Of a stretch of 47,274 bases of DNA, positions 6,757 to 43,215 are shown in pieces. The notes under the pieces were generated by a model. That model saw only the letters and a program-made list of their open reading frames with translations. It was not told the origin of the DNA and did not search any database. This stretch comes from Minisyncoccota bacterium (GTDB lineage Bacteria; Patescibacteriota; Minisyncoccia; UBA6257; 2-01-FULL-56-20), in contig DATKNI010000036.1 in NCBI GenBank assembly GCA_035541415.1, positions 1-47,274 on the forward strand, given 5' to 3'. Both the position numbers and the translations under genes were made by a program. Within the stretch, counting starts at the first letter, position 1; each line of letters starts with the position of its first letter.

Positions 6757-8946
6757 TTAGTATAGCAGTATTGGCTTTGCTCCAATCGTCACGGTGCCGC
6801 CGCTCACCGTGCAGGCGCTCCCGTCAACCGTCGAGCAGTTCTTGAACCCGTCGGCAGAAACGGTTGCCGGCGTGTCCGCGGAGTTCCATTTAATTTCTTC
6901 CGATACGCCTGCGGACGATGTGAGTGAGCACGTGTAATACGAACCGGATACCGGGCACGGATTTGATTTGGCAAACGACGATCCGACGAGCCATGATTCC
7001 ACGGTGCCATAGGCTTGGCCGGATTCGAGCTCGATGTTTGGATGCTCATTTAGCGAGCCGAATGAGTCGCCTTGATTTCCCCACTGGTACCAATAGTAGC
7101 GGGTAACCCCGTTTGCGGCGACGAGAATATACGACCGCGAGACGAAAGCTGCCATGTTATCCAAACACGTTTGCGAAAATGGCGGGACGTCGCTCGCGGG
7201 GCAGCCCGTGATGATGCTGTTCCGGCCCCAGCTCGATTCCGTGTCGATAAGCGGCAAGGATCCAGCGCCGCTCTGCTGCATTGCGGCGAACATCTTGGAG
7301 ATGAGCGAGACAATGCCTTCTGGATCGGGACTGCCGAGATAGGTATGGAACGTGACGCCGTCCGCAACTGAAGCGCCGGAGATCGTCGAGCCGTTCACAA
7401 CGATAGTTGTCGTGAGATAATATTTCATGCCGTCCTGCGGATTCGTGGTTGTGTAGATATTTTTGGTAAGGAGCGCATTCTTGCAGTTGCAGGTATCCGG
7501 CGTGAGAACGACGGCGCTCGGATCGAACTGCTTGATGATCGTGCGCGCGTCATACGCCATGCGCACGAGCTGCTCAGCCGTGCTGACCCAGAACTGCTTG
7601 TTATTTACTTCGTTCCAAACCTCAAAATATTTGATGTGCTCGCCGGTCTGATTGAGGTGCTGCATGAGCGCCGTCACAAAATCCTTAAAATGCTGGTCGG
7701 TCCCCGTGCCGTCTGCCGCAACGTCGCTTGGCGCATCGCATTCGCCGCCGGTTTTGACCGGCGCCGGCGTCGGTTCGGCGCACGAGGTATCACCCGGGTT
7801 CGAACTCGCCCAGTTTGGATCGCCGCCGAAGGTATAAAGCACGGTCTGCCCGTTCGCCGCGGCTTGATTCACCAATCCGTCGAACGTTGCCCATTTATAG
7901 GTGCCTTCAGAAGGTTCAATCTGATCCCACCGCGTGGCCGTATCCCACATCCGCAGCGAACCAAACGGAACCGGCACCGGTTGCGCGGTCGGCGGCCACG
8001 GCGTCGCCATGTCGTGCACGTTCAGGCTGAAGAAGTCGGCTTGGATTCCTGGACCGCTACTCGCGCTCTTCACCGTGAGTACGAGCGTCTTTGAATCCAT
8101 CCCTGCGGAATTCGTCGCGCTGATCGTTATATTCGATGTCTGGGCTGCCGAAGGCGTCCCCGAAATAGTGGCGGTATTGGCATCGAACGAGAGTCCTGCC
8201 GGCAAACCTTGCGCCGCATAGGTGCAACCCGACGAGCAATTGGTCGCCGTGATGGTGTAGGTGAACGGACTTCCCACCACGCCCGATGCCGTGAGCGCGC
8301 TCGTGATGGCCGGCGGCTGGACGGAGGTCACGCCGCATACCGCGATGCATGATGAAAGCGTGGAGAACGATCCGCCGGACCCGGCAGCCGAACAGCTGTT
8401 ATTTACGCAGTTATACGTCTGCGGAGGAGGCGGGCCAGAACCGCCGCTCGCGCCGTGATACAAAAATTCGATGCAATAATATGGCTCATCGCACGAGGAA
8501 AGCCCTTGCGCGTTGTAGTTCAGAAAATCCGATGGCGGCACATAATTTTTGAAAACATCCGTGCTCGAACTCTCAAGTTTTGCGGCGATCAAATATGATG
8601 TGCCGCTCGCGTTCACGCCGTAATAATACGTTGCGCCGGAATTTGCAAATGGATCGTTCGGCACCGAATTGACATTGATGGCCCGCGATCCCGTGAGCGC
8701 GGCAGTGAGTGCGCTCCAGGTATACGCGCCGCTCGGCCCGCCAGCGCAATTTGCCTGGCCGGGATAGAATCCGCATAGCGCGAAATACACTTCGAGGTCG
8801 GTTGAAACCTGGGTCAGATCCGTAACGCGCCGCTCGTCGCGCGAACCTGTTTGCGGCTTTGAGAGGCCGACGAGGACAATGCCCGAAAGCACCGCAATGA
8901 TGGCGACGACCACAAGAATCTCAACGAGAGAAAATCCTCTTTTCAC
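6757..8946 (-). CDS. Type IV pilin/pseudopilin fused to an Ig-like domain and a clan GH-A (GH39/GH5-like) glycoside hydrolase
   Basis: GTG start; KRGF|SLVEILVVVAIIAVL prepilin motif; VPNDP; GLPAGLSFD..TATISGTP Ig repeat; RMWDT..RWDQIEP, FEVWNE (E at 7609-7611), DTESSWG (E at 7237-7239). Confidence 0.85.
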   Translation of the reverse strand: MKRGFSLVEILVVVAIIAVLSGIVLVGLSKPQTGSRDERRVTDLTQVSTDLEVYFALCGFYPGQANCAGGPSGAYTWSALTAALTGSRAINVNSVPNDPFANSGATYYYGVNASGTSYLIAAKLESSSTDVFKNYVPPSDFLNYNAQGLSSCDEPYYCIEFLYHGASGGSGPPPPQTYNCVNNSCSAAGSGGSFSTLSSCIAVCGVTSVQPPAITSALTASGVVGSPFTYTITATNCSSGCTYAAQGLPAGLSFDANTATISGTPSAAQTSNITISATNSAGMDSKTLVLTVKSASSGPGIQADFFSLNVHDMATPWPPTAQPVPVPFGSLRMWDTATRWDQIEPSEGTYKWATFDGLVNQAAANGQTVLYTFGGDPNWASSNPGDTSCAEPTPAPVKTGGECDAPSDVAADGTGTDQHFKDFVTALMQHLNQTGEHIKYFEVWNEVNNKQFWVSTAEQLVRMAYDARTIIKQFDPSAVVLTPDTCNCKNALLTKNIYTTTNPQDGMKYYLTTTIVVNGSTISGASVADGVTFHTYLGSPDPEGIVSLISKMFAAMQQSGAGSLPLIDTESSWGRNSIITGCPASDVPPFSQTCLDNMAAFVSRSYILVAANGVTRYYWYQWGNQGDSFGSLNEHPNIELESGQAYGTVESWLVGSSFAKSNPCPVSGSYYTCSLTSSAGVSEEIKWNSADTPATVSADGFKNCSTVDGSACTVSGGTVTIGAKPILLY

Positions 8947-11651: not shown

Positions 11652-11736
11652 GTTGCGCTGAACCGTTTTGCGGTTCTTTTGCGCAACCGATATCGGCGGT
11701 TTTTGTTATTTCCTGAAAATTTGTTTGAGCAACGCC

Positions 11737-14070
11737 ATGAAGCAACACCTCGGACAGAATCAAATCAAAACGATTCCAAAAATCAGAAGGGATAAATTTA
11801 TTATCTTTTGTATTGTCGCGTATGCGATGTACCTTGGCTTTGCGTTCGTGTTCAATGCTCACGCCGACCCGCCGTCCAGTCCATTTGCTCCGGGAGCGAC
11901 GCTCGATCCCGGTTGTTCGCCGACCAGCACGAACTGCACGGTTAACCCGCCGCTGTTTAGCTCGACGACACTTCCCATCGGTGGGCTTCTTTTTGTAAAC
12001 GACGCGAGCGGCACGATTACGGCAAACACATCGAGCCTTTACTGGAACAGCGCATCATCAACGCTCCTCGTGAACGGGACACTTTTGACCTCCGGCATCG
12101 CGCTTTCTTCTCTCACCTCTTCCATTCTGGTGACGGACGGCAATGGCAACGTGGGCGCGTTAAGCATCGGATCCGGACTCTCGCTTTCTTCCGGAACGCT
12201 TACCGCAACGGGAGGCGGCGGCGGAAGCGGGCCGCTCGCCATCACGACATCAAGCATCAGTCTCGTCGACGAACTCGATTCCACGACCACCCAAATCACC
12301 ATAAAGAACACGACCGCGACCGGAACGCTCTATTCGTACACCCTGCCGGGAAACACGCTGGGGACAAATGGGGATTTCATCCGCATCAATATGTTCGGGT
12401 ATATTTTTAATAATTCCGGATCAAATCGAACCGTGACGCTTCGATTGTTCTATGGAGGCAAACAGTTCTTTGCCGTGCCGTCGGGGAACATCGCGGCAAA
12501 CGCCGCGACCTCCGGCTGGTCGGCGACCTTCTATATCGCAAATACGTCGTCATCCCAAGCCCAGGTCGGCGAATTCAACGCCCAAGCAAGCCCGGGAAGC
12601 GGGACGGTGAGCGTCACCTGGGGCGGAGGCGGCATTTCATCAGTTGATTCAACCGTCGACCAAAATGTGCAGGTCCAGGCAAGTTTAAGCACCGCGTCGA
12701 CGACCGTGTGGCTGGCTGTGACGAGCGTAAAAACAGAACTGGTCACGGGCAACCAAGTCATCGTCACGAACGTGACTGGGACCGTGAGCGCGGTGACTGC
12801 CACAGGAACTGATTTTTATGTGCCGTATTTCACCGACACAACAACGCTTTCGGAAACGTCATCGATTTTTTATGCGAGCTCCACGGGATTCATCGGCATC
12901 GGCACCACGACGCCGTCGCAGATGCTTACCGTGAACGGCAAAATCAAAGCCGTCGGCGGATTCAACGGCCAATGTCTTTCGAGCGGCGGATTCAACGCCA
13001 CATCTTCCGGTTCATGCAATATGGACGTCGCCGAAGTCTATCCAACATTCGAACCGACTGAGCCAGGCGACGTCGTAGCCATCCCGCCCTACGCGACCGG
13101 AACCGATATCGTTGCCATCGGCCGTTCGCACGGCACCGCGAATGAGACCGTCATCGGCGTCGTGTCAACAAATCCCGGTCTCGTCTTTAATAATGGAGAA
13201 ACTTCAATCGCCGGCGAGAACGACGACCTCACCACGTCGACGCAAGCGGCCATCGCCCTGGTGGGCCGGGTGCCGGTAAAAATATCTTTGGAGAACGGGC
13301 CGATCGCTCCGGGCGATTCGCTTGCCGCATCCACGGATCTTCCCGGCGTTGCCGTAAAAGCGATCGGTCCCGGCCGCGTGATCGGCGAGGCGCTCCAGGC
13401 GTTTGACGAAGCGGATGCACATTCGAGCAATGCGAGCGGGACGCCCCAGATTTTAGTCTTCATTAATCCGCACTGGGATCCAGGAACTCCATCCTCTTCA
13501 TTTTCCATCAATGCCTCGCTTTCACAATTCGTCCAGACTCTCCAAAGCGCCTTGGAGAATTTGGGCATCACCATCAATAACGGCATCGTCACAATAAAAA
13601 ACCTCGTCGTTGAAAAACTTACTGCCGGCGAAGTGGACGCAGACAAAATCTGCCTGAGCGGCACGTGCGTCACCCAAGGCGAGTTGAGTGCGATGTTGGA
13701 AAACCATGTTGCAACCTCTTCCCCAGACACCGCCCCGGCGGCGGCTCCACCGGAAGATTCGACCACAACGATCAGCGCACCAGTCGCATCATCATCAATT
13801 CCGACGTCCACACCCGTATCTGATCTAACTCCGATCGAGACAACCTCGACAACCTCGACCGCCTCAACGACTCCCGCATCTGCTCCCGATCCTGATCTTT
13901 CAACGTCTCTCCCTCCACCTCCACCGCCGTCACCTCCGCCACCACCGCAGCAGCAACAACCTCCTCCGCCTTCTGAGACTTCGCCGTCTTCTTCTCCTTC
14001 TACGCCTCCGCCGCCGCCTCCGTCTTCTCCTTCTCCCTCTCCAAGCGACGCATCGTCAACAACAAATTAA
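11737..14070 (+). CDS. Exported tail-fibre-like protein with a putative intramolecular-chaperone (peptidase G2/S74-like) domain and a Pro-rich tail
   Basis: Signal/TM segment (..FNAHA-DP); GIGTTTP motif; DVAEVY..EPGDVV..VIGVVSTNPG..ALVGRVPVK..GPIAPGD; start uncertain (11737 chosen). Confidence 0.75.
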   Translation: MKQHLGQNQIKTIPKIRRDKFIIFCIVAYAMYLGFAFVFNAHADPPSSPFAPGATLDPGCSPTSTNCTVNPPLFSSTTLPIGGLLFVNDASGTITANTSSLYWNSASSTLLVNGTLLTSGIALSSLTSSILVTDGNGNVGALSIGSGLSLSSGTLTATGGGGGSGPLAITTSSISLVDELDSTTTQITIKNTTATGTLYSYTLPGNTLGTNGDFIRINMFGYIFNNSGSNRTVTLRLFYGGKQFFAVPSGNIAANAATSGWSATFYIANTSSSQAQVGEFNAQASPGSGTVSVTWGGGGISSVDSTVDQNVQVQASLSTASTTVWLAVTSVKTELVTGNQVIVTNVTGTVSAVTATGTDFYVPYFTDTTTLSETSSIFYASSTGFIGIGTTTPSQMLTVNGKIKAVGGFNGQCLSSGGFNATSSGSCNMDVAEVYPTFEPTEPGDVVAIPPYATGTDIVAIGRSHGTANETVIGVVSTNPGLVFNNGETSIAGENDDLTTSTQAAIALVGRVPVKISLENGPIAPGDSLAASTDLPGVAVKAIGPGRVIGEALQAFDEADAHSSNASGTPQILVFINPHWDPGTPSSSFSINASLSQFVQTLQSALENLGITINNGIVTIKNLVVEKLTAGEVDADKICLSGTCVTQGELSAMLENHVATSSPDTAPAAAPPEDSTTTISAPVASSSIPTSTPVSDLTPIETTSTTSTASTTPASAPDPDLSTSLPPPPPPSPPPPPQQQQPPPPSETSPSSSPSTPPPPPPSSPSPSPSDASSTTN
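13905..14045 (+). repeat. Low-complexity Pro/Ser/Gln-coding repeats
   Basis: CCT/CCA/CCG/TCT runs encoding PPPPPPSPPPPPQQQQPPPP. Confidence 0.85.
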
Positions 14071-14996: not shown

Positions 14997-16538
14997 TTAC
15001 ACGAGCGGCTCAGAGCTCGCCACCCAGCGGGCAAGCATATCGCCCGACATGGGCCGGGCAACGCGGAATCCCTGGACGCCGCTGCAGCCGAGTTCGCGAA
15101 GCAGGTTTAATTGCTCCTTTGTTTCCACGCCTTCTCCCACAACCTTGAGGTTGAGGTTCTGTCCGAGCGCGACGATCGTCTGAATGATGGCGCGGTCTTC
15201 TTTGCTCTTCAAACTGCGCCGCACAAATGATTGGTCGATTTTCAATTTATCCACGGAAAGATCTTTCAAATATCCGAGCGACGAATATCCCATGCCGAAA
15301 TCGTCGATGGCAATCGTAATGCCAAGCTTGTGGAACGCCTTGAACCGGTCTTTCGCAAGGTCGATGTTTTCCATCGCAAGGCTTTCCACAATTTCAAATT
15401 CAAGCAGGGTCGGCGAAATTTCAAACTCATCGAGCATGCTGCGGAGCTTTTCCATAAAAGTGCGGTCGGTGAATTCCCGGGTTGAAAGGTTGACGGCGAC
15501 GCGGATGCGCGAAACGCCCTGCCTCTGCCAGGTCCTCTGGCTCTGCAGGACGCCCCGCAGGGTGCTTTCGCCAAGCATGCGCATGATGCCGTGATCGTAC
15601 GCGAGCGGTATGAAGTCGTGCGCTTCGATGAGTCCCTGCTCCGGATGCCGCCAACGGAGCAGGGCTTCGGCATTCATGATGCGGTTCGTCGAAAAATCAA
15701 CAACCGGCTGGTAATAAATTTCCATCTGCTCCGAAGCGACCGCGTGCCGCAGCTCCTGCACCACCTGCATGCGCGACGACGCTTCGCGATTCATCATCGC
15801 CCGATAGAAACGAAAGTGATTGCGGCCCGCATGCTTGGCTTGGAGGAGCGCGACATCGGAATTCGCGACGAGCGTCGAGAGCTCGCGGCCATCGCGCGGG
15901 AACATGGCAACGCCCATGCTGGTCGAAAGGAAAAGGGTTTTTGATTCGATCGACATCGGAGATTCAAGAGCGGTCACGACGCGCTTCAAAATATTCGAAA
16001 CATCGGTTTGCGATTTCACCTTATGAAGGACGACGAGAAATTCGTCGCCTCCGAGGCGCGCAAAAAGGCTTCCCGGCGGGAGCACTTCGTCAACGCGCCC
16101 GGCAAACTCCTTGAGCAGCATGTCGCCGACCTGATGGCCGTAGACGTCGTTGATCTGCTTGAAGCGATCGAGGTCGAAATAAACAACCGCCATTTTCTGA
16201 TCGTCCCGGAATGCATTTTGGAAAACTTCGGCGAGCCGCTCCTCAAGCAATTTTCGGTTCGGCAATCCGGTCAGCGGATCATGAAGCGCCTGATGCCGGA
16301 TGCGCTCCTCGATGATCTTGCGGTCGGCGATTTCGTTCTCCAATTCGCCGATCCGCTCGCGGATGACCTCGATCATCACCTGGATGCCGGTTGCGAGTTC
16401 GGCAAATTCCTCGTTGTCCTCAGGAATGGCAACGTCCTCGGAATACTCGCCGATGGAGGCCTTCGCGAAAATAGTGCGGAACGAATCGAGGCGTTCTTTT
16501 ACGTACTTCTTATAGGAGTCGAGTGATTCTATTGCCAT
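14997..16538 (-). CDS. Cytoplasmic HAMP-GGDEF-EAL diguanylate cyclase/phosphodiesterase
   Basis: HDPLTGLPNR, DLDRFKQINDVYGH..GD, RLGGDEF; EALLRW, VNLS, DDFGMGYSSL, LKIDQSF, EGVE; HAMP-like N-terminus without a TM helix. Confidence 0.95.
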   Translation of the reverse strand: MAIESLDSYKKYVKERLDSFRTIFAKASIGEYSEDVAIPEDNEEFAELATGIQVMIEVIRERIGELENEIADRKIIEERIRHQALHDPLTGLPNRKLLEERLAEVFQNAFRDDQKMAVVYFDLDRFKQINDVYGHQVGDMLLKEFAGRVDEVLPPGSLFARLGGDEFLVVLHKVKSQTDVSNILKRVVTALESPMSIESKTLFLSTSMGVAMFPRDGRELSTLVANSDVALLQAKHAGRNHFRFYRAMMNREASSRMQVVQELRHAVASEQMEIYYQPVVDFSTNRIMNAEALLRWRHPEQGLIEAHDFIPLAYDHGIMRMLGESTLRGVLQSQRTWQRQGVSRIRVAVNLSTREFTDRTFMEKLRSMLDEFEISPTLLEFEIVESLAMENIDLAKDRFKAFHKLGITIAIDDFGMGYSSLGYLKDLSVDKLKIDQSFVRRSLKSKEDRAIIQTIVALGQNLNLKVVGEGVETKEQLNLLRELGCSGVQGFRVARPMSGDMLARWVASSEPLV

Positions 16539-17071
16539 TCAATGGTGTAGCCATGGACCTTGCTCTCGATGATCCGGGGCGTGATCGCGCCCGTAAGCCC
16601 GCAGTATTCCATCCACGCCTGAAAGAGACCTTTGAAGTGATCGATGGGATAATCGGTGTTGCTCATCACGAGATAAACGGTTTTGGGACCCAATTCTTCG
16701 CTCGCAAATTTAACGCCCTGGAACACATGGGCGCCGAGATAACGCGCCCGGAGCAGGATAAGCCGATAATTATTTTTGAAAAACGGGAGGGTGAGCCGCC
16801 CGAGCGGCGTTTGTGAAAAATTTTTAAAATGGACTTTCCCCGCTTCGTACGCAATCCTGTCTTCCGGAATCGGATGGTCCGCGAGGATGCGAGTGGCGCA
16901 TTCAATAAGCCGTGATTCGTCCTTGACGGGAATCGTGTCCGAGACTTTGAAGGCGAGTGATTTCCCGTAGCAGGCCTCGAGTGCGCGCACGCCTTCTTCT
17001 CCCTTTGCGCGAAAAACGGCTTGCACGTGGCTCTTCATAAAAATACCTTTTATCGATGGCTCGAGTGACAT
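16529..17071 (-). CDS. DUF2378/TIGR02265-like (V4R/HNOB-like fold) protein
   Basis: IKGIF, P..D..RL...A..IL, AYEAG..HF..F.QT.LGR, G...V.L.......P..HF.GL, Y.IEW pattern; 10-nt overlap with the DGC/PDE gene. Confidence 0.65.
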   Translation of the reverse strand: MSLEPSIKGIFMKSHVQAVFRAKGEEGVRALEACYGKSLAFKVSDTIPVKDESRLIECATRILADHPIPEDRIAYEAGKVHFKNFSQTPLGRLTLPFFKNNYRLILLRARYLGAHVFQGVKFASEELGPKTVYLVMSNTDYPIDHFKGLFQAWMEYCGLTGAITPRIIESKVHGYTIEWQ

Positions 17072-17106: not shown

Positions 17107-17122
17107 GATTCAGATCTGAATC
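17107..17122. promoter_or_regulatory. Perfect 16-bp palindrome, candidate operator
   Basis: GATTCAGATCTGAATC equals its own reverse complement; lies in the 74-bp divergent intergenic region. Confidence 0.6.
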
Positions 17123-17145
17123 TTGTAATATCTTGTACACAGCCC

Positions 17146-17574
17146 ATGGAACACGCTAGAATGAATGTTATGAACGAACAAAAGAATCAGGAGCGCAGAA
17201 GATTCCCGCGCATACCTTCGCGCTTGAACGAGCACGAAGTCGCAGCGATCAGAAAAATGAAACAGGACGATCCTGACATTACGCCGCAGGAGCTCGCCAC
17301 CCGCTTCCGGGTTTCCATCAGCCATATGCGGAATATCCTGAACGGCCTCTCGTGGCGGCCGCGCGAAGACGGATCATCGGTGCAGGATGACCGCCGCCGG
17401 TACTCCCGCATCCCGTCCCGCCTCACGCCGGAAGAAGTTGAAACGATCCGCCGGCTCAAGCAGGAAAATCCCCGCCTCACGGCCCGCGAGCTCGCCGTTC
17501 GATTCAAAGTTTCCGCAACCCACATCTACGACATCTGGAAAGGAAGGACGTGGCGCAGCGGGAGCCAGCCTTAA
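17146..17574 (+). CDS. Tandem-repeat HTH protein, each repeat preceded by an RRRxxR motif
   Basis: Two ~56-aa repeats with a 66-aa period: RRRxxRIPSRL...V..IR..KQ..P..T..ELA.RF.VS..H...I..G..WR; start could be 17161 or 17170. Confidence 0.8.
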   Translation: MEHARMNVMNEQKNQERRRFPRIPSRLNEHEVAAIRKMKQDDPDITPQELATRFRVSISHMRNILNGLSWRPREDGSSVQDDRRRYSRIPSRLTPEEVETIRRLKQENPRLTARELAVRFKVSATHIYDIWKGRTWRSGSQP

Positions 17575-17597
17575 CCGCCGTTACGGCGGTTTTTGGT
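17573..17597 (+). terminator. Rho-independent terminator
   Basis: AACCGCCG-tta-CGGCGGTT-TTT. Confidence 0.7.
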
Positions 17598-17765
17598 TGC
17601 GGAAATTTTTAAACCGGTGTACGATGTATCAGCAAGGTTAATAGAGAACGAGCTCCTGTCGTTCTTTTTATTTTCATGTTTTATTATCTTCTTCTCGCAT
17701 TTGTTGCCGGCATGGTCGTCGGCATGATCATCCTCTGGAAAATTTCCAAAAAATTCTAGCCGCAC

Positions 17766-38391: not shown

Positions 38392-41300
38392 CTACCACTT
38401 TCCCTGCATATAGGCTCTCGTCTTCGGTCCTAGAATACCTGATGCCGGGGTAATGCCATTCGCTGCCTGCCACTTGGCAAGAGCAGCCTGCGTCTTGCCG
38501 CCAAAGTACATGACTTCATTACCCGGAGATCCAGCTCCGCTTGGGGATATGGTATATCCATTGTCATTCAGGAAAAGCTGGAGGTTCTTTACATCTTGGC
38601 CTGAGCTTCCGATCGTGAGGGTTCGGGTGAAGCTTGCTACCAATTGATGGTTCAATTGGGCAATCAATGCTTGGAGTTCTGCGATGAGGGATTGAAGTAA
38701 TGCTTCAAGACCGGATTGGGATGTGGGGAGGGTTGAGGAAGAGGAAGAGGAAGAGCCGGAGCTGGAAGAACCTGAACCCGATGAGCCTGAACCAGATCCG
38801 GAGCTGCCGGAAGAACCTCCACCGGAACTACCGCTGCCCGATCCACCAGATGAGCCACCACCCCCACCCGATCCGCCGCCTCCCGACGAACCGCCACCTC
38901 CTCCGCCGCCGCCACCACCGCCTGATACGACGGTGTTGCTCACGGTGACGGTGATTGCCGTTGTGTTGGTGTTGCCGGAAGAATCCGTTGCCTTGGCGGT
39001 AATCGTATGGGCGGCGTTGCTCAAACTGGTGGTATCAAGGGAATAGGTCCAACTGGTTGTGCCTTGCACTGCCTGGTAACTGCCTCCATCAATGCTCACT
39101 TGGACATTTGCTACGGACACATTGTCACTCGCACTGCCCTGGATCGTAATCGTGTTCGCAACAACCTGATTGTTGGTGGGGCTGACGATCGCGATGCTCG
39201 GTAGGGTTGTATCGCCCTGGACAATACCTTGGGTTGTCCCTTGGATTTGGGTTGATTGCGCTGACGTGTTTCCTGCGGCGTCATATGCGGAAACGGTGTA
39301 GCTGTAGGTGGTGGATGCGGTGAGGGCGGTGTCCGTGAATGCGTTCGTTGCATTGGTACCGATCTGGGTGCCTCCCCGATATATCTTGTATCCGGTGACG
39401 CCTACGTTGTCCGTTGAAGGATTCCAGGTGAGGGAAATAGTTGAAGTTGTCGTGCCTTGGACATTGAGTCCGGTGGGAACCGTGGGGGGCTGGGTGTCAG
39501 ACGGCGGTGGGTTGTTCACGGTGACGGTGACGGCGCCTGACGTTGTCTGGTTGTTTGATGTATCTTTTGCAAGAGCCGTAATCGTATGGGTTCCATTGGC
39601 CACCTGGGTAGAGTCCCAGGCAAAGGTATATGGCGATGTGGTGTCGGGAGAGCCGACAAAGCTTCCATCAACTTTGAATTGCACCGATTGTATGGCCACA
39701 TTGTCTGATGCGGTTGCCTGGAGCGTGATCGTGCTTGATACGGTTGCGTTGTTAGTGGGAGATGTCACGGACACCGTGGGAGGCGTCGTATCCTGGAACT
39801 TAGTTGTTCCCGTGACTGCTGATGACTGGACAGAATTGTTTCCTGCGGCGTCATATGCACTCACGGTGTAGCTGTAGGTGGTGGATTGATTGAGGCCAAC
39901 ATCCGTGAAAGACGTTGCTGCCGTCGTTCCAATCTGGGTGCCTCCTCTATATATCTTGTATCCCGTGACAGCGATGTTGTCGGTGGAAGCAGTCCACGAG
40001 AGAGAAACGGTTGAGGTGGTTACCGTACCCACAGTGAGGCCCGTGGGGACCGAGGGAGGTGTGGTATCAGGATTGTTTACGATGACCGTGACTTGTTGGG
40101 TATTTGTGTTGTTCGAGGAATCGGTTGCCTTGGCCGTGATGGTATGGGTGCCATTCGTAAGAAGCGTGGTGTTCCAACTGAAGGTCCACGAGGTGGTGCC
40201 TGCGGTTGCAACATATGCTCCCCCATCAATGGAGATCGCAACCGAAGAGACGGATATGTTGTCGGATGCGGTGCCGTTGATATTCACCGTGCCTTGGACG
40301 GTTGCATTGTTTGTGGGAGACGTGATGGCAACCGAGGGAGGCGTGGTATCGAGAACCGTGTTTGAAACGGTTACCCCGACGTTTGCACTCGTGCCCACGT
40401 TGCCTGCCGCATCATATGCCTTGGTAGACAAGGTATGGGATCCGTTCGTTGACGATGCTGTGTTCCAGCTCCAGGTGTAGGGAGAAGAAAGACTGGTGGA
40501 TTGGAGCGCAGAGTCAAGGTAGAACTCAACTTTCGTGACGCCGACATTGTCGGAAGCAGAGGCTTGGACGGCAATGGTTGAGGAGGCGGTCGAACCGGAA
40601 GTGGGAGCAGTAAGGGAAATCGTGGGCGGCGTGGTGTCGCCGCCGCCGCCGGAAGCATATTGGTAGGCACCGATGGTTGGAACAGAAGCTAAGAGCACTT
40701 GCGTGCCATCGGAATCTTTATAGAGATACACGGGAGCACCAACGGTACGCGAGATCGGTGATGCAAGCGTGATGACGTTCGTGGCGTAATTAATAGAGGC
40801 AATCTGCACAATGTTGTTAGTCGAACCCACAGCGATCCAGTCGGGTTGAACACCCGCAATACCATAGCCATCCTGGAAAAAGCTCGCATCATTCACGACA
40901 AGCGACGTGCCGGAACCAGAATCGCCCGAAGCAACATTCGTGAGCGGACCGCCTGCACCGATTGCCTGCGAACCAGCCTGAAGGTGCAGATCCGAGGCGC
41001 TTGTGAAGAGCGGATTCAAGTTAAGCTTGTCCGTTGAATCATAATTACTTGGCCCCGTGCCGGTGGACGGCCCATGCCACGCTCCGGAATAATTGTCGTT
41101 ATAGCAGATGTTGTTATGTTCCACAAAACCGGGCATCGAACTTGAGTCAACGTACATGCACCAAGAAACGCCGCTCAAGTTCGACATGTCCATAAAAATA
41201 TTATTGATAACTTTTGCATTCGTATCGCCATTCGTCCATGAATTAGCTTCATAATCCTGCGTGCCTGTCCATCGCACTGATTCGTTATAAATGCGCTCAC

Positions 41301-43170
41301 CGATTGAATTAGTATCGTTCGCCATATAATAGCTTCCGATATTGATATATTTGTTATACCGAATGATCTGATTCGCTTGGCCGCAGCTATTCACGTCCCG
41401 CAACAAAAATCCATGCGCATTCGAAGCGCCCCAGTCCTGGACGGTGTTATTCTCAAAAACCAGGCGCGTGAGCGGGATGTCGGTGTTTCCCGGAACACAC
41501 GTCGCAGACGATTCGAGCGCGTCCGGATGAGCAGACCCGTATTCTGACGCAAGCACCGGACCAAAATGATTGTTGCGGACCACGTTGTTGCCGCCATAAA
41601 GCGCTATTCCGTCTTCTACGTGTGAAATCGTATTGCCATCAAACAAATTATTATTCCCTTCCATTAAAATTCCTTGTGCAGTCGCGTTGTCGCAATACGT
41701 TATGGTGTTGTTCAAAAATGCATTAAAGCTCGCTGCCTGATAATTTCCGCTGAGCGGGGCCTGAAAACATCTGGCGCTTGTGTTGTGGACATAATTATTC
41801 TGGATGATGACATGGCTCATGGTCGTCCACGATGTCACTCCGGTGATTTCAAAACCTTGGCTCGCCAAAATTCCTCCTATCGTTATGTAGGAAGCGCTTC
41901 CAAGCGTGATGCCAGAGTTGATGACCACGGTATCACCAGGATTTTTCTGGAACGTTATCGGGCTCCCGGCGCTGCCGCTCGTGGTCTGGTTCCACCCGGC
42001 ATACGTTCCTGCATAGACCACGCACGTATCCCCCGCAACGGCGGCATTTGAACAGGCCTGGATCGTCGTGAAATTGCCCGTACCGTCTTTTTTCACCGTA
42101 TATGTATGCGGCCCGCTGCTTTGCTGGGTTGTTGCGTTCACACTGCCCGACTGCGCAGACGTATTGAGTGCGGCGTCGGTCGCAGAGATCGTGTATGAAT
42201 ACGTTGTGCCGGCAGCAAGACCGGTATCGCTATAGCTCGTTGCCCCCGCGGAGGTCGTTGTTATCTTTGTCCCGTTCCGATACAGGTTGTACGTAATCTG
42301 GTTTTGCGCAGAAACATTGTCCGTGGAAGCAGTCCAGGAAAGGTTGATTTGGGTTTGAGAAACAGCCGCGGCCGCGAGGTTGGTCGGGACCGAAGGAGGC
42401 GTCGTGTCAGTGCTCGTACTGCCGCCGCTCGCAGACTTAAAGGCTGCAATTTCTGCCACCATTCCCGTTGCTCCGGTTTCCGTCCATGTGGGATTCTGCG
42501 CGGAGGCATCGGAGGAAATGTAATAAGCGGACTGCATCGAATCAGTAATACTGCTCGCAATTCCGAAATCGCTTTGATCAAGAACGAACGGCGTCGATAT
42601 AGAGCCAGAGCTTGGAAGCCGCGCCGAACTCCAGCCGGTCACGAACAGATCACCCGTCTGCGAAGGAGTTGAAATTCCCGTCTGGACGGAAGTCCCATCG
42701 ATACTCCCCCATGAAAATGAACCAGCATCATACACTGCGCTCGTGGTGAGCGTTCCGGAATAGGCTTCGATAAGGGCGCGCATATTGGTTGCAGTGTTCC
42801 CAACGTGAATGTGGAATGTTTGGTTTGCCCCGACAGTAGGATTGTAGACATAATACATCCGCTGATAGCCAGAATGATTCACTACGGCAGGATCGGCTTG
42901 CCAGCCTCCGATGCCATTCCAAATATTGTTATTGCTGTCACTCACGGTTAAGGTCGATGTGCCGCTTCGGGTATGGACAATAAAGACAAGGAGTGTCGCC
43001 CCCGAAGTGTTCATCGCCGTGGAGGTTGCGTCTACCGTTGCATCACAGCAGGTGTATGATATCTGCCCGCTCGTCACTAAACCGATAGCGGCGTGAGCAT
43101 TATTTATGGCGAAGGGTAAGAGTAGTAATAAAAATAAGGCCAAAATAACGGCGCTTCGGAGCTTTGTCAT
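38392..43170 (-). CDS. Giant exported protein: N-terminal beta domain, FN3, right-handed beta-helix (pectin-lyase-like), 4 Ig-like plus 2 further FN3 repeats, Gly/Ser linker, C-terminal peptidoglycan-binding domain
   Basis: Signal peptide (..NNAHA-AI); seven DTxP-initiated modules; TVKKDGTGNFTTIQ..AGDT..V..GTY; LTIGSSGQDVKNLQ.FL..YFG.KT.AAL.KWQ..G.LGPKTR; start at ATG 43170. Confidence 0.88.
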   Translation of the reverse strand: MTKLRSAVILALFLLLLLPFAINNAHAAIGLVTSGQISYTCCDATVDATSTAMNTSGATLLVFIVHTRSGTSTLTVSDSNNNIWNGIGGWQADPAVVNHSGYQRMYYVYNPTVGANQTFHIHVGNTATNMRALIEAYSGTLTTSAVYDAGSFSWGSIDGTSVQTGISTPSQTGDLFVTGWSSARLPSSGSISTPFVLDQSDFGIASSITDSMQSAYYISSDASAQNPTWTETGATGMVAEIAAFKSASGGSTSTDTTPPSVPTNLAAAAVSQTQINLSWTASTDNVSAQNQITYNLYRNGTKITTTSAGATSYSDTGLAAGTTYSYTISATDAALNTSAQSGSVNATTQQSSGPHTYTVKKDGTGNFTTIQACSNAAVAGDTCVVYAGTYAGWNQTTSGSAGSPITFQKNPGDTVVINSGITLGSASYITIGGILASQGFEITGVTSWTTMSHVIIQNNYVHNTSARCFQAPLSGNYQAASFNAFLNNTITYCDNATAQGILMEGNNNLFDGNTISHVEDGIALYGGNNVVRNNHFGPVLASEYGSAHPDALESSATCVPGNTDIPLTRLVFENNTVQDWGASNAHGFLLRDVNSCGQANQIIRYNKYINIGSYYMANDTNSIGERIYNESVRWTGTQDYEANSWTNGDTNAKVINNIFMDMSNLSGVSWCMYVDSSSMPGFVEHNNICYNDNYSGAWHGPSTGTGPSNYDSTDKLNLNPLFTSASDLHLQAGSQAIGAGGPLTNVASGDSGSGTSLVVNDASFFQDGYGIAGVQPDWIAVGSTNNIVQIASINYATNVITLASPISRTVGAPVYLYKDSDGTQVLLASVPTIGAYQYASGGGGDTTPPTISLTAPTSGSTASSTIAVQASASDNVGVTKVEFYLDSALQSTSLSSPYTWSWNTASSTNGSHTLSTKAYDAAGNVGTSANVGVTVSNTVLDTTPPSVAITSPTNNATVQGTVNINGTASDNISVSSVAISIDGGAYVATAGTTSWTFSWNTTLLTNGTHTITAKATDSSNNTNTQQVTVIVNNPDTTPPSVPTGLTVGTVTTSTVSLSWTASTDNIAVTGYKIYRGGTQIGTTAATSFTDVGLNQSTTYSYTVSAYDAAGNNSVQSSAVTGTTKFQDTTPPTVSVTSPTNNATVSSTITLQATASDNVAIQSVQFKVDGSFVGSPDTTSPYTFAWDSTQVANGTHTITALAKDTSNNQTTSGAVTVTVNNPPPSDTQPPTVPTGLNVQGTTTSTISLTWNPSTDNVGVTGYKIYRGGTQIGTNATNAFTDTALTASTTYSYTVSAYDAAGNTSAQSTQIQGTTQGIVQGDTTLPSIAIVSPTNNQVVANTITIQGSASDNVSVANVQVSIDGGSYQAVQGTTSWTYSLDTTSLSNAAHTITAKATDSSGNTNTTAITVTVSNTVVSGGGGGGGGGGGSSGGGGSGGGGGSSGGSGSGSSGGGSSGSSGSGSGSSGSGSSSSGSSSSSSSTLPTSQSGLEALLQSLIAELQALIAQLNHQLVASFTRTLTIGSSGQDVKNLQLFLNDNGYTISPSGAGSPGNEVMYFGGKTQAALAKWQAANGITPASGILGPKTRAYMQGKW
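38734..38921 (-). repeat. Low-complexity Gly/Ser linker repeats
   Basis: GAGGAA x3 and CCG/CCA runs on the + strand encoding GGGGGGG..SSGSGS..SSSSSS. Confidence 0.85.
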
Positions 43171-43215
43171 ATATTTCATTCTAGCAAATAGAAATAAGGC
43201 AGTCTGGAGCAAAAA

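Follow-up and report, generated by a model that had tools for sequence, protein, structure and literature searches.

A tandem-HTH protein with PilZ- and CleD-like arginine arms, encoded back to back with a GGDEF-EAL operon, as a candidate c-di-GMP-sensing regulator in Candidatus Paceibacterota

The small HTH protein encoded in the 47,274-nucleotide stretch of Minisyncoccota DNA analysed here (the window) may represent a new kind of regulator that senses c-di-GMP, a credible though unproven reading, since its gene is linked back to back with that of a c-di-GMP enzyme and its two arms copy the sequences of c-di-GMP-binding peptides. Taken as a whole, the locus was best explained by a domesticated two-HTH regulator attached to a c-di-GMP module, with the arms capturing the ligand, and we put the probability of this reading at roughly 0.4. 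That the arms bind c-di-GMP directly, which would make the HTH protein a c-di-GMP-sensing regulator, is a tentative claim to which the sequence lends somewhat less than an even chance. In the proposed mechanism, the DNA-binding repeat of homing endonucleases would have been domesticated in one Paceibacterota clade as the regulator of a c-di-GMP module, giving a monomeric protein with two HTHs that is small and, with a pI of 11, very basic. The DUF2378 protein, with its predicted H-NOX fold, would set the balance of the adjacent GGDEF-EAL enzyme, and c-di-GMP, probably as an intercalated dimer, would be captured by two disordered arms of the form [E/D]RRx[F/Y]xR...SR, in which the acidic residue and the paired Arg would read the guanine edges and the aromatic residue would stack, as in the N-termini of PilZ proteins and in the CleD peptide. 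The ligand might either lock the two HTH units in a fixed geometry or withdraw the arms from the DNA, and would thereby change the occupancy of the divergent promoter region, where the 16-bp palindrome lies and TTGTA repeats cover the -35 element, and in relatives also that of the promoter of a PgaC/IcaA-like operon with the same -35 motif. The DNA targets, the binding of the ligand and the direction of regulation are the parts of this scheme that we infer.

The features of the locus are listed in Table 1. The plus-strand ORF of 142 aa at 17146-17574, from which the original prediction started, exists as described, but the true start is probably ATG 17170 rather than 17146, giving 134 residues. 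This start was favoured because all homologues begin about 8-17 residues ahead of the arm, and because the promoter-like element TGTACA-17-TAGAAT reaches downstream of 17146. With this promoter the mRNA would be leaderless or near-leaderless (predicted start at about 17169), an arrangement common in the window. The encoded protein has a pI of 11.1 and contains 17% Arg. Its gene showed a dN/dS of 0.06-0.15, and dS was saturated (>1.5) between all lineages. The window is otherwise ordinary chromosome, carrying genes for ATP synthase, tRNA synthetases and LepA.

The two predicted repeats, each consisting of an arm, an HTH and a terminal WR, were borne out by a self-alignment that ran without gaps over 56 residues (52% identical, 75% similar, E 1e-21). 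The Pfam family HTH_32 (homeodomain-like) matched in two stretches with 45.2 bits against a gathering score of 33.7, and the protein belongs to the homeodomain-like HTH superfamily and to the homing-endonuclease HTH-repeat family. In the AlphaFold2 (AF2) model built from the family alignment, the all-helical protein formed two three-helix bundles with pLDDT of 80-87, while the arms (about 50 for arm 1), the 18-residue linker and the tails were of low confidence. The recognition helices of the two repeats have diverged (SISHMRNILNG vs SATHIYDIWKG). No further sensory domain was seen in the HTH protein by the Pfam scan or in the AF2 model. The Foldseek search with the two-domain model gave nothing significant (best E 0.12), which is attributed to the flexible linker spoiling the global superposition; the best-ranked of these non-significant entries were bipartite HTH DNA binders, namely the Pax8 paired domain, SETMAR/Mos1 and a CRISPR-repeat-binding protein. 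A profile search of the PDB with the family alignment returned marginal generic HTH matches only and no solved relative by sequence, and the 22-aa arm peptide, too short a query to be informative, matched no PDB sequence.

Table 1. Features of the tandem-HTH locus (positions in the window).
Feature	Position	Strand	Details
Tandem-HTH protein gene	17170..17574	+	134 aa from ATG 17170 (probable start); longest ORF 17146..17574, 142 aa
Repeat 1, ERRRFPRIPSRL-HTH-WR	17191-17358	+	
Arm 1, ERRRFPRIPSRL	17191..17226	+	142-aa ORF residues 16-27; candidate for contacts with c-di-GMP or with the minor groove
HTH unit 1, three helices	17230..17340	+	AF2 helices 21-33, 39-46, 50-57 (134-aa numbering); recognition helix VSISHMRNILNG
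Repeat 2, DRRRYSRIPSRL-HTH-WR	17389-17556	+	
Arm 2, DRRRYSRIPSRL	17389..17424	+	Residues 82-93; begins DRRR[FY], like the CleD peptide (DRRRF)
HTH unit 2, three helices	17428..17538	+	AF2 helices 87-99, 105-112, 116-123 (134-aa numbering); recognition helix VSATHIYDIWKG
Promoter-like TGTACA-17-TAGAAT	17134..17162	+	Equal geometry at homologous loci
Direct repeat ATCTTGTA x2	17120..17137		10-bp spacing, over the -35; presumed candidate site for the two HTH units
Perfect 16-bp palindrome GATTCAGATCTGAATC	17107..17122		Between the divergent promoters; candidate operator
Intrinsic terminator-like hairpin and T-run	17573..17591	+	After the HTH stop
Membrane micro-ORF	17676..17759	+	27 aa, conserved, 3' of the HTH gene; L001 and L002 have it there too
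DUF2378/TIGR02265 protein	16529..17071	-	Putative sensor, heading the divergent operon; family by Pfam and NCBIfam
GGDEF-EAL protein	14997..16538	-	Intact GGDEF, EAL, DDFGxGYS and EGVE motifs

The arms were the best-conserved segment between the two repeats (69%, vs 48% for the HTH cores), and the consensus [E/D]RR[R/K/Q][F/Y]xR[ILVM]xSRL was found in 16 of 16 arms, that is, in both repeats of all 8 family members. When 277 generic homing-endonuclease HTH units were aligned, their arms had the consensus x(R/K)(R/K)GE(R/K)(H/N)xx(S/A)KLTE, and RRxxxR occurred in register in 2 of the 277 (anywhere in the arm in 3) vs all 16 arms of the window family, in each of which Arg also stands in place of the generic Lys. 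Judged by this alignment, the invariant acidic residue, the aromatic residue and the Arg for generic Lys are derived features of the window family, and its arm is a rewritten positional homologue of the generic arm, with the changes G to R, E to F/Y, H/N to R and K to R and a new invariant acidic residue. Since the register is that of the generic arm, the arm would have arisen by substitution, as a convergence on the motif and not by transfer of a domain. The idea of a PilZ-type arginine motif grafted onto an HTH is thus only half right: the RRxxxR motif is conserved, family-specific and present in both repeats, but an arm that keeps the generic register was not grafted. Among the 277 generic units, other R-rich arms were found in P0075, P0018 and P0100; the contig of P0075 carries no c-di-GMP genes and, at 2.5 kb, is too short to be informative.

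Arm 1 (ERRRFPRI) was identical at 7 of 8 residues to residues 7-14 of PA4608 (ERRRFHRI), whose N-terminus reads DERRRFHRIAFD in PDB 2L74/5XLY and is its c-di-GMP-binding segment. PilZ domains are defined by the motifs RxxxR and DxSxxG (PMC12564702). The RRxxxR feature was present as RR[RKQ][FY]xR in all 16 arms. No (D/N)xSxxG, which in PilZ domains stands 20-30 residues beyond RxxxR, followed the arms, and a pattern scan of the real ORFs of the window and the loci gave no PilZ pattern; Pfam PilZ (PF07238) did not match the HTH protein even at E<=1, and its AF2 model contained no beta-barrel. The expectation that both the PilZ barrel and the D/NxSxxG motif would be missing was therefore confirmed by Pfam, by the sequence and by the all-helical model, and a PilZ identity was rejected because two of the three testable defining features fail. 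What the protein has in common with the PilZ receptors (PA4608/MapZ, PDB 2L74; MrkH as a PilZ transcription factor) is the flexible N-terminal (E)RRxxxR, and also the neighbourhood, in which c-di-GMP enzymes are encoded beside the HTH gene. In PilZ proteins, however, the motif precedes a six-stranded beta-barrel, whereas here it precedes an all-helical HTH, twice.

The second point of comparison is CleD, whose peptide DRRRFNSADYKGPRRRKAD (starting DRRRF) is unfolded when free and binds intercalated (c-di-GMP)2 with a Kd of 108-177 nM, through contacts of D154, R155 and R156 together with R169/D172 and aromatic stacking; the Asp of DRR contacts the Watson-Crick edge of guanine and the two Arg its Hoogsteen edges, and peptides without the second motif stop binding (PMC7382256). 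The [E/D]RR of this DRR-type motif was invariant in both arms of all 8 proteins. The second motif of CleD, [R/K]RxxD, lies about 11 residues downstream in a helical turn. In its place the arms have SRLNE in repeat 1, with the pattern RxxE, and SRLTPE in repeat 2, with RxxxE, both located at the helix-1 N-cap and 7 residues beyond RR; the acidic residue and the spacing differ from those of CleD. The arms are like CleD in being a linear motif with a predicted disordered apo state and the DRRR[F/Y] start, in combining an acidic residue, two Arg and an aromatic residue, and in having no folded pocket. The CleD motif is a C-terminal extension of a CheY-like receiver, whereas the arms are carried in two copies on an HTH protein in which Pfam found no receiver domain. 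With c-di-GMP-linked regulators such as BldD, the HTH protein would share the logic from second messenger through DNA-binding protein to polysaccharide or biofilm genes, and the ligand could likewise bridge two DNA-binding modules; its fold and putative binding motif are unrelated to theirs, and it is much smaller (134 aa), monomeric with its modules in tandem, and found in Patescibacteria. As an alternative effector, a c-di-GMP riboswitch was sought and none was found in the window or in six loci. The literature search turned up no account of c-di-GMP signalling in Patescibacteria, and likewise none of this HTH family or of any c-di-GMP effector with a tandem HTH.

The HTH gene is transcribed divergently from the DUF2378 gene (16529-17071, minus strand) and the GGDEF-EAL gene (14997-16538, minus strand), which overlap each other by 10 nt, in agreement with the divergent DGC/PDE operon of the original prediction. 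About 8 homologues, with 69-87% identity and all from Candidatus Paceibacterota MAGs, were found among 5.8 billion proteins, and the gene was present in only 3 GTDB species representatives, one of them a complete 827-kb chromosome. Co-localisation of homologues with GGDEF/EAL genes, proposed beforehand as a check, held in every lineage that could be examined: the orthologous GGDEF-EAL gene was divergent from the HTH gene in every context with enough flank (L001-L013), and GGDEF, EAL, DDFGxGYS and EGVE were kept in 7 of 7 orthologues of the enzyme. The DUF2378 gene lies between the two genes in the window, L001, L003, L007 and L012 and is absent in L002 and L004, and the outer flanks differ among contexts (PAPS reductase, pilin-like genes with fn3 giants, or others). 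Because dS is saturated (>1.5), the linkage and the intergenic motifs reflect selection and not recent ancestry; because the family is confined to one narrow clade, the 8 contexts are not fully independent. In a distant DUF2378-GGDEF-EAL operon (L017, 48% identity), a gene for a 92-aa membrane protein takes the place of the HTH gene, which makes the HTH protein a later addition to an older sensor-enzyme pair. On the other side of the HTH gene, the micro-ORF of Table 1 is an uncertain member of the module.

Between the divergent promoters, the palindrome and the repeats over the -35 are candidate operators by their sequence, and the HTH protein would presumably be the binding protein. The 14-bp core of the palindrome, ATTCAGATCTGAAT, was identical in the window, L001 and L003 despite the saturated dS and occurred nowhere else in the window or the loci. 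TTGTAC or GTAACAAA was found in relatives at the position equivalent to that of the direct repeat, and the -35 of the HTH gene is TTGTAC(A) in the window, L003 and L001 instead of GTAACRAA. In L002, L004, L007 and L012, the HTH gene and a GT2 operon each have the latter sequence at their -35, followed about 18 nt further on by a TATnnT box; L001 has it at the GT2 promoter only, in L003 the GT2 promoter has the variant GTAACGCA, and in the window it was absent. The 8-mer was almost restricted to those two promoters within loci of 10-16 kb. That GTAACRAA or TTGTAC is a general -35 element was rejected, as other promoters of the window have TATAAT 7-12 nt before the ATG without it.

The GT2 operon was found near the HTH gene in all relatives, either directly downstream of it or after an inserted sortase pair, and encodes a small membrane protein (about 95-104 aa), a GT2 of 413-456 aa and a third protein of a few hundred residues that, where scanned, had no Pfam family. 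The GT2 is PgaC/IcaA-like, matching TIGR03937 at 1e-53 over the full model length but below the equivalog cut-off, and synthesis of PgaC/IcaA-like polysaccharide is a classic output of c-di-GMP signalling. The small protein ahead of the GT2 was considered as a PilZ protein and rejected, being a membrane protein without a Pfam family. In the window the cluster is missing: nothing corresponding to L003:8387-12596 lies between the HTH gene and DivIC/LepA, and the rest of the 47 kb contained no homologue.

The origin of the HTH unit was traced by a profile search of 1.84 billion protein representatives, which gave 822 relatives, only two of them close. The others were proteins of 200-1250 aa with 2-11 tandem copies of the unit, and in a Pfam scan of eight of them HNH_3 was found N-terminal to the array in four (one also with NUMOD4) and GIY-YIG in two, the other two being HTH-only arrays. 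The best PHROGs matches of the HTH protein were endonuclease/HNH families. The resemblance to the HTHs of phage HNH endonucleases, put forward in the original prediction, was thus correct, since HNH_3 and GIY-YIG domains front arrays of this very unit. Common to the HTH protein and the homing-endonuclease arrays (HNH_3/NUMOD4, GIY-YIG; Pfam HTH_7, HTH_23, HTH_38, Mor) are a unit of about 56-66 aa and the pattern ...(S/A)(K/R)L(T/N)ExxVxxIR...ELAxxFxVSxxxIxxIxxGxxW. Unlike these arrays, the HTH protein has no nuclease domain and only two units, its gene stays at one chromosomal locus and evolves under purifying selection, and the arm contains RR[FY]xR in place of RGExH. Pfam gave no HNH or GIY-YIG match in the 142-aa protein, and its identity as a homing endonuclease was rejected for want of the nuclease domain. 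Mor/C phage activator, the name given to P0002 by one source, was also rejected, as Mor (PF08765) was not among the matches at E<=1.

The main rival to c-di-GMP sensing is a plain minor-groove arm. The HTH protein would then be an ordinary local transcription factor that regulates the divergent operon and itself (and in relatives the GT2 operon), with arms that contact only DNA, in the minor groove or at phosphates beside the half-sites, and with an activity set by its own expression level; we regard this as a possible explanation with about one chance in three. The N-terminal basic arms of HTH_7 and homeodomain-like domains commonly lie in the DNA minor groove, as in Hin and the homeodomains, and the protein combines an HTH_32/HTH_7-type fold with such arms. 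The generic homing-endonuclease units likewise have basic arms, and with its pI of 11.1 and 17% Arg the protein may simply use its arms for DNA. The promoter offers candidate sites in the direct repeats spaced by 10 bp and in the conserved palindrome, and the best-ranked, non-significant Foldseek matches, the Pax paired domain and SETMAR/Mos1, are bipartite DNA binders. This explanation leaves several observations aside, however: the gain of invariant acidic and aromatic residues in both arms, which are expected for guanine recognition and not for contacts with the DNA backbone; the arm being the best-conserved part between the repeats; the match to the ligand-contact residues of PilZ proteins and CleD (7 of 8 residues of PA4608, and the DRRR[F/Y] start); and a regulator without an input domain that is kept strictly beside a second-messenger enzyme. 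Direct sensing of c-di-GMP by the arms is further favoured by their being both derived (2/277 vs 16/16) and constrained (69% vs 48%), by the intact catalytic motifs in the 7 orthologues of the strictly linked GGDEF-EAL enzyme, by the lack of a rival receptor nearby (PilZ pattern, riboswitch) or another input domain, and by the GTAACRAA -35 shared with the PgaC/IcaA-like GT2 operon in 4 lineages. Against it, the arms lack the second half of the PilZ and CleD motifs or have it only in imperfect form, with a shorter spacer than in CleD, the L017 operon works without such an HTH neighbour, the genome of the window has neither the GT2 operon nor GTAACRAA, the whole family is one narrow clade, and the perfect palindrome suits a homodimer better than two unlike HTH units.

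The strict pairing with the GGDEF-EAL gene, the two intact catalytic domains and the absence of a folded ligand-binding domain from the HTH protein would also fit a trigger-enzyme partnership, in which the EAL/GGDEF domain or DUF2378 senses c-di-GMP and controls the HTH protein by contact, the arms being a docking or DNA element. In E. coli, PdeR controls MlrA by such protein-protein contact. We consider this arrangement improbable here, because it leaves the match of the arms to direct c-di-GMP binders unexplained and because disordered Arg arms are, to our knowledge, not a docking element for EAL domains. Much less probable still is that the gene is left over from a homing endonuclease or mobile element, as a nuclease-less DNA-binding array without any role in c-di-GMP signalling. 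The closest relatives outside the family, HNH_3/GIY-YIG endonucleases with arrays of the same HTH unit, speak for this origin, but synteny and dN/dS largely refute it: although dS is saturated, every lineage has the gene at one and the same place in the chromosome, and purifying selection on it is strong (dN/dS 0.06-0.15). The gene also has its own promoter and terminator, and no nuclease domain or element boundaries were found, the window being ordinary chromosome.

If c-di-GMP sensing by the arms is real, the protein would represent a new minimal receptor class, in which two PilZ/CleD-like arms, evolved in situ on a tandem HTH, clamp a c-di-GMP dimer and switch DNA binding; we hold this view tentatively, at rather less than even odds. 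It would be the first described c-di-GMP circuit in Patescibacteria (CPR), running from H-NOX-fold DUF2378 through GGDEF-EAL and the tandem HTH to a PNAG-like polysaccharide operon, and would show that genome-reduced CPR bacteria can have a circuit complete from sensor and enzyme to effector and output; it would also document a homing-endonuclease DNA-binding module domesticated as a cellular regulator. Binding by the arms would mean that a few substitutions to (E/D)RRx(F/Y)xR could make an ordinary HTH a second-messenger sensor, would extend the "linear motif" principle of CleD to transcription factors and would provide a sequence rule for hidden c-di-GMP effectors. With binding demonstrated, the HTH family could become a new receptor class among the c-di-GMP-linked transcription regulators.

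Whatever the ligand of the HTH protein, the sensor part of the proposed sensor-cyclase-effector system gained support from the DUF2378 partner. The literature search gave mentions of DUF2378 in myxobacterial transcriptomics only, and no PDB relatives were found by sequence. An AF2 model was built on 20 Patescibacteria homologues (pLDDT 92), and in a Foldseek search with it the top 38 matches were all H-NOX, with E values down to 1.4e-7, TM scores of 0.6-0.73 and full-length coverage; by this model, DUF2378 has the H-NOX fold. In H-NOX/HaCE pairs, for example those of Shewanella woodyi and Legionella, the gene of an H-NOX sensor adjoins that of a GGDEF-EAL enzyme. Likewise, the H-NOX-fold protein of about 180 aa is encoded here immediately upstream of the GGDEF-EAL enzyme and is translationally coupled to it. 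The family, however, is DUF2378 and not HNOB, and the YxSxR heme-propionate motif is absent; of its invariant histidines, H115 is found roughly where the proximal His would be expected. In another Patescibacterium, the DUF2378 gene stands directly ahead of a PAS histidine kinase, two receivers and a Crp-like factor, and the H-NOX fold together with the GGDEF-EAL and histidine-kinase neighbours gives this orphan family a testable role.

The product of the DUF2378/TIGR02265 gene has the H-NOX fold (AF2 model, pLDDT 92), and the best 38 Foldseek matches of this model in the PDB were all H-NOX proteins. The YxSxR heme motif was absent from its sequence. The gene overlaps the GGDEF-EAL gene by 10 nt and is thus translationally coupled to it, an arrangement resembling that of the H-NOX/HaCE pairs. 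In another Patescibacterium (L021:1333-5029), a DUF2378 gene is immediately followed by the genes for a histidine kinase with a PAS domain, two receivers and a Crp-like regulator. DUF2378 thus appears to be a portable input module serving various signalling outputs. On the side of the partner, residues 1-80 of the GGDEF-EAL protein contained a conserved N-terminal helical region of about 75 residues (…FAKAS.GDYSED…F.ELA.GIQVMIEVIRERI.ELE…) with no Pfam match, which is possibly the docking site for the DUF2378 sensor. The inhibitory-site RxxD of GGDEF-EAL was found in only some orthologues (L007, L002).

Comparison with the closest relative, L003, revealed a clean 4.2-kb difference in gene content (window 17575-17765 versus L003:8387-12596). 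Between the HTH gene and DivIC-LepA, L003 carries genes for a sortase, a small membrane protein, a PgaC/IcaA-like GT2 and a 382-aa protein, whereas this cluster is missing from the window's genome. A conserved micro-ORF follows the HTH gene in the window, and counterparts follow the HTH gene of the relatives L001 (8419-8496) and L002 (8470-8547); it was left uncalled in the gene annotation.

Among the loci of relatives L001-L013, the 8-mer GTAACRAA was common to the -35 regions of the HTH gene and GT2 operon promoters, and in L001, L004 and L007 its inverted partner CGTTAC precedes the GT2 operon; together they look like the signature of a small regulon. A looser pattern found a similar promoter-like layout on the related 8-mer GTAACGGA at L003:1656 (-). 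Many window genes (with starts at e.g. 4121, 4970, 11274, 38344, 45779) lacked a Shine-Dalgarno sequence and had a TATAAT-like box just 7-12 nt 5' of the ATG, which suggests that leaderless or near-leaderless transcripts are widespread in this organism.

The window also encodes an 800-aa protein without a Pfam match, which is likely a surface protein.

Coordinates of the features in the window
Feature	Position	Strand	Remarks
Pilin-like N_methyl/He_PIG protein	6757-8946	-	
800-aa protein	11668-14070	+	Long Pro/Ser/Thr/Gln-rich C-terminal tail (…PPPPPPSPPPPPQQQQPPPPS…)
GGDEF-EAL protein	14997-16538	-	
DUF2378/TIGR02265 protein	16529-17071	-	
Micro-ORF, 27 codons, MFYYLLLAFVAGMVVGMIILWKISKKF	17676-17759	+	Conserved; one membrane helix; downstream of HTH gene
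1606-aa Big_7/fn3/PG_binding giant	38392-43212	-
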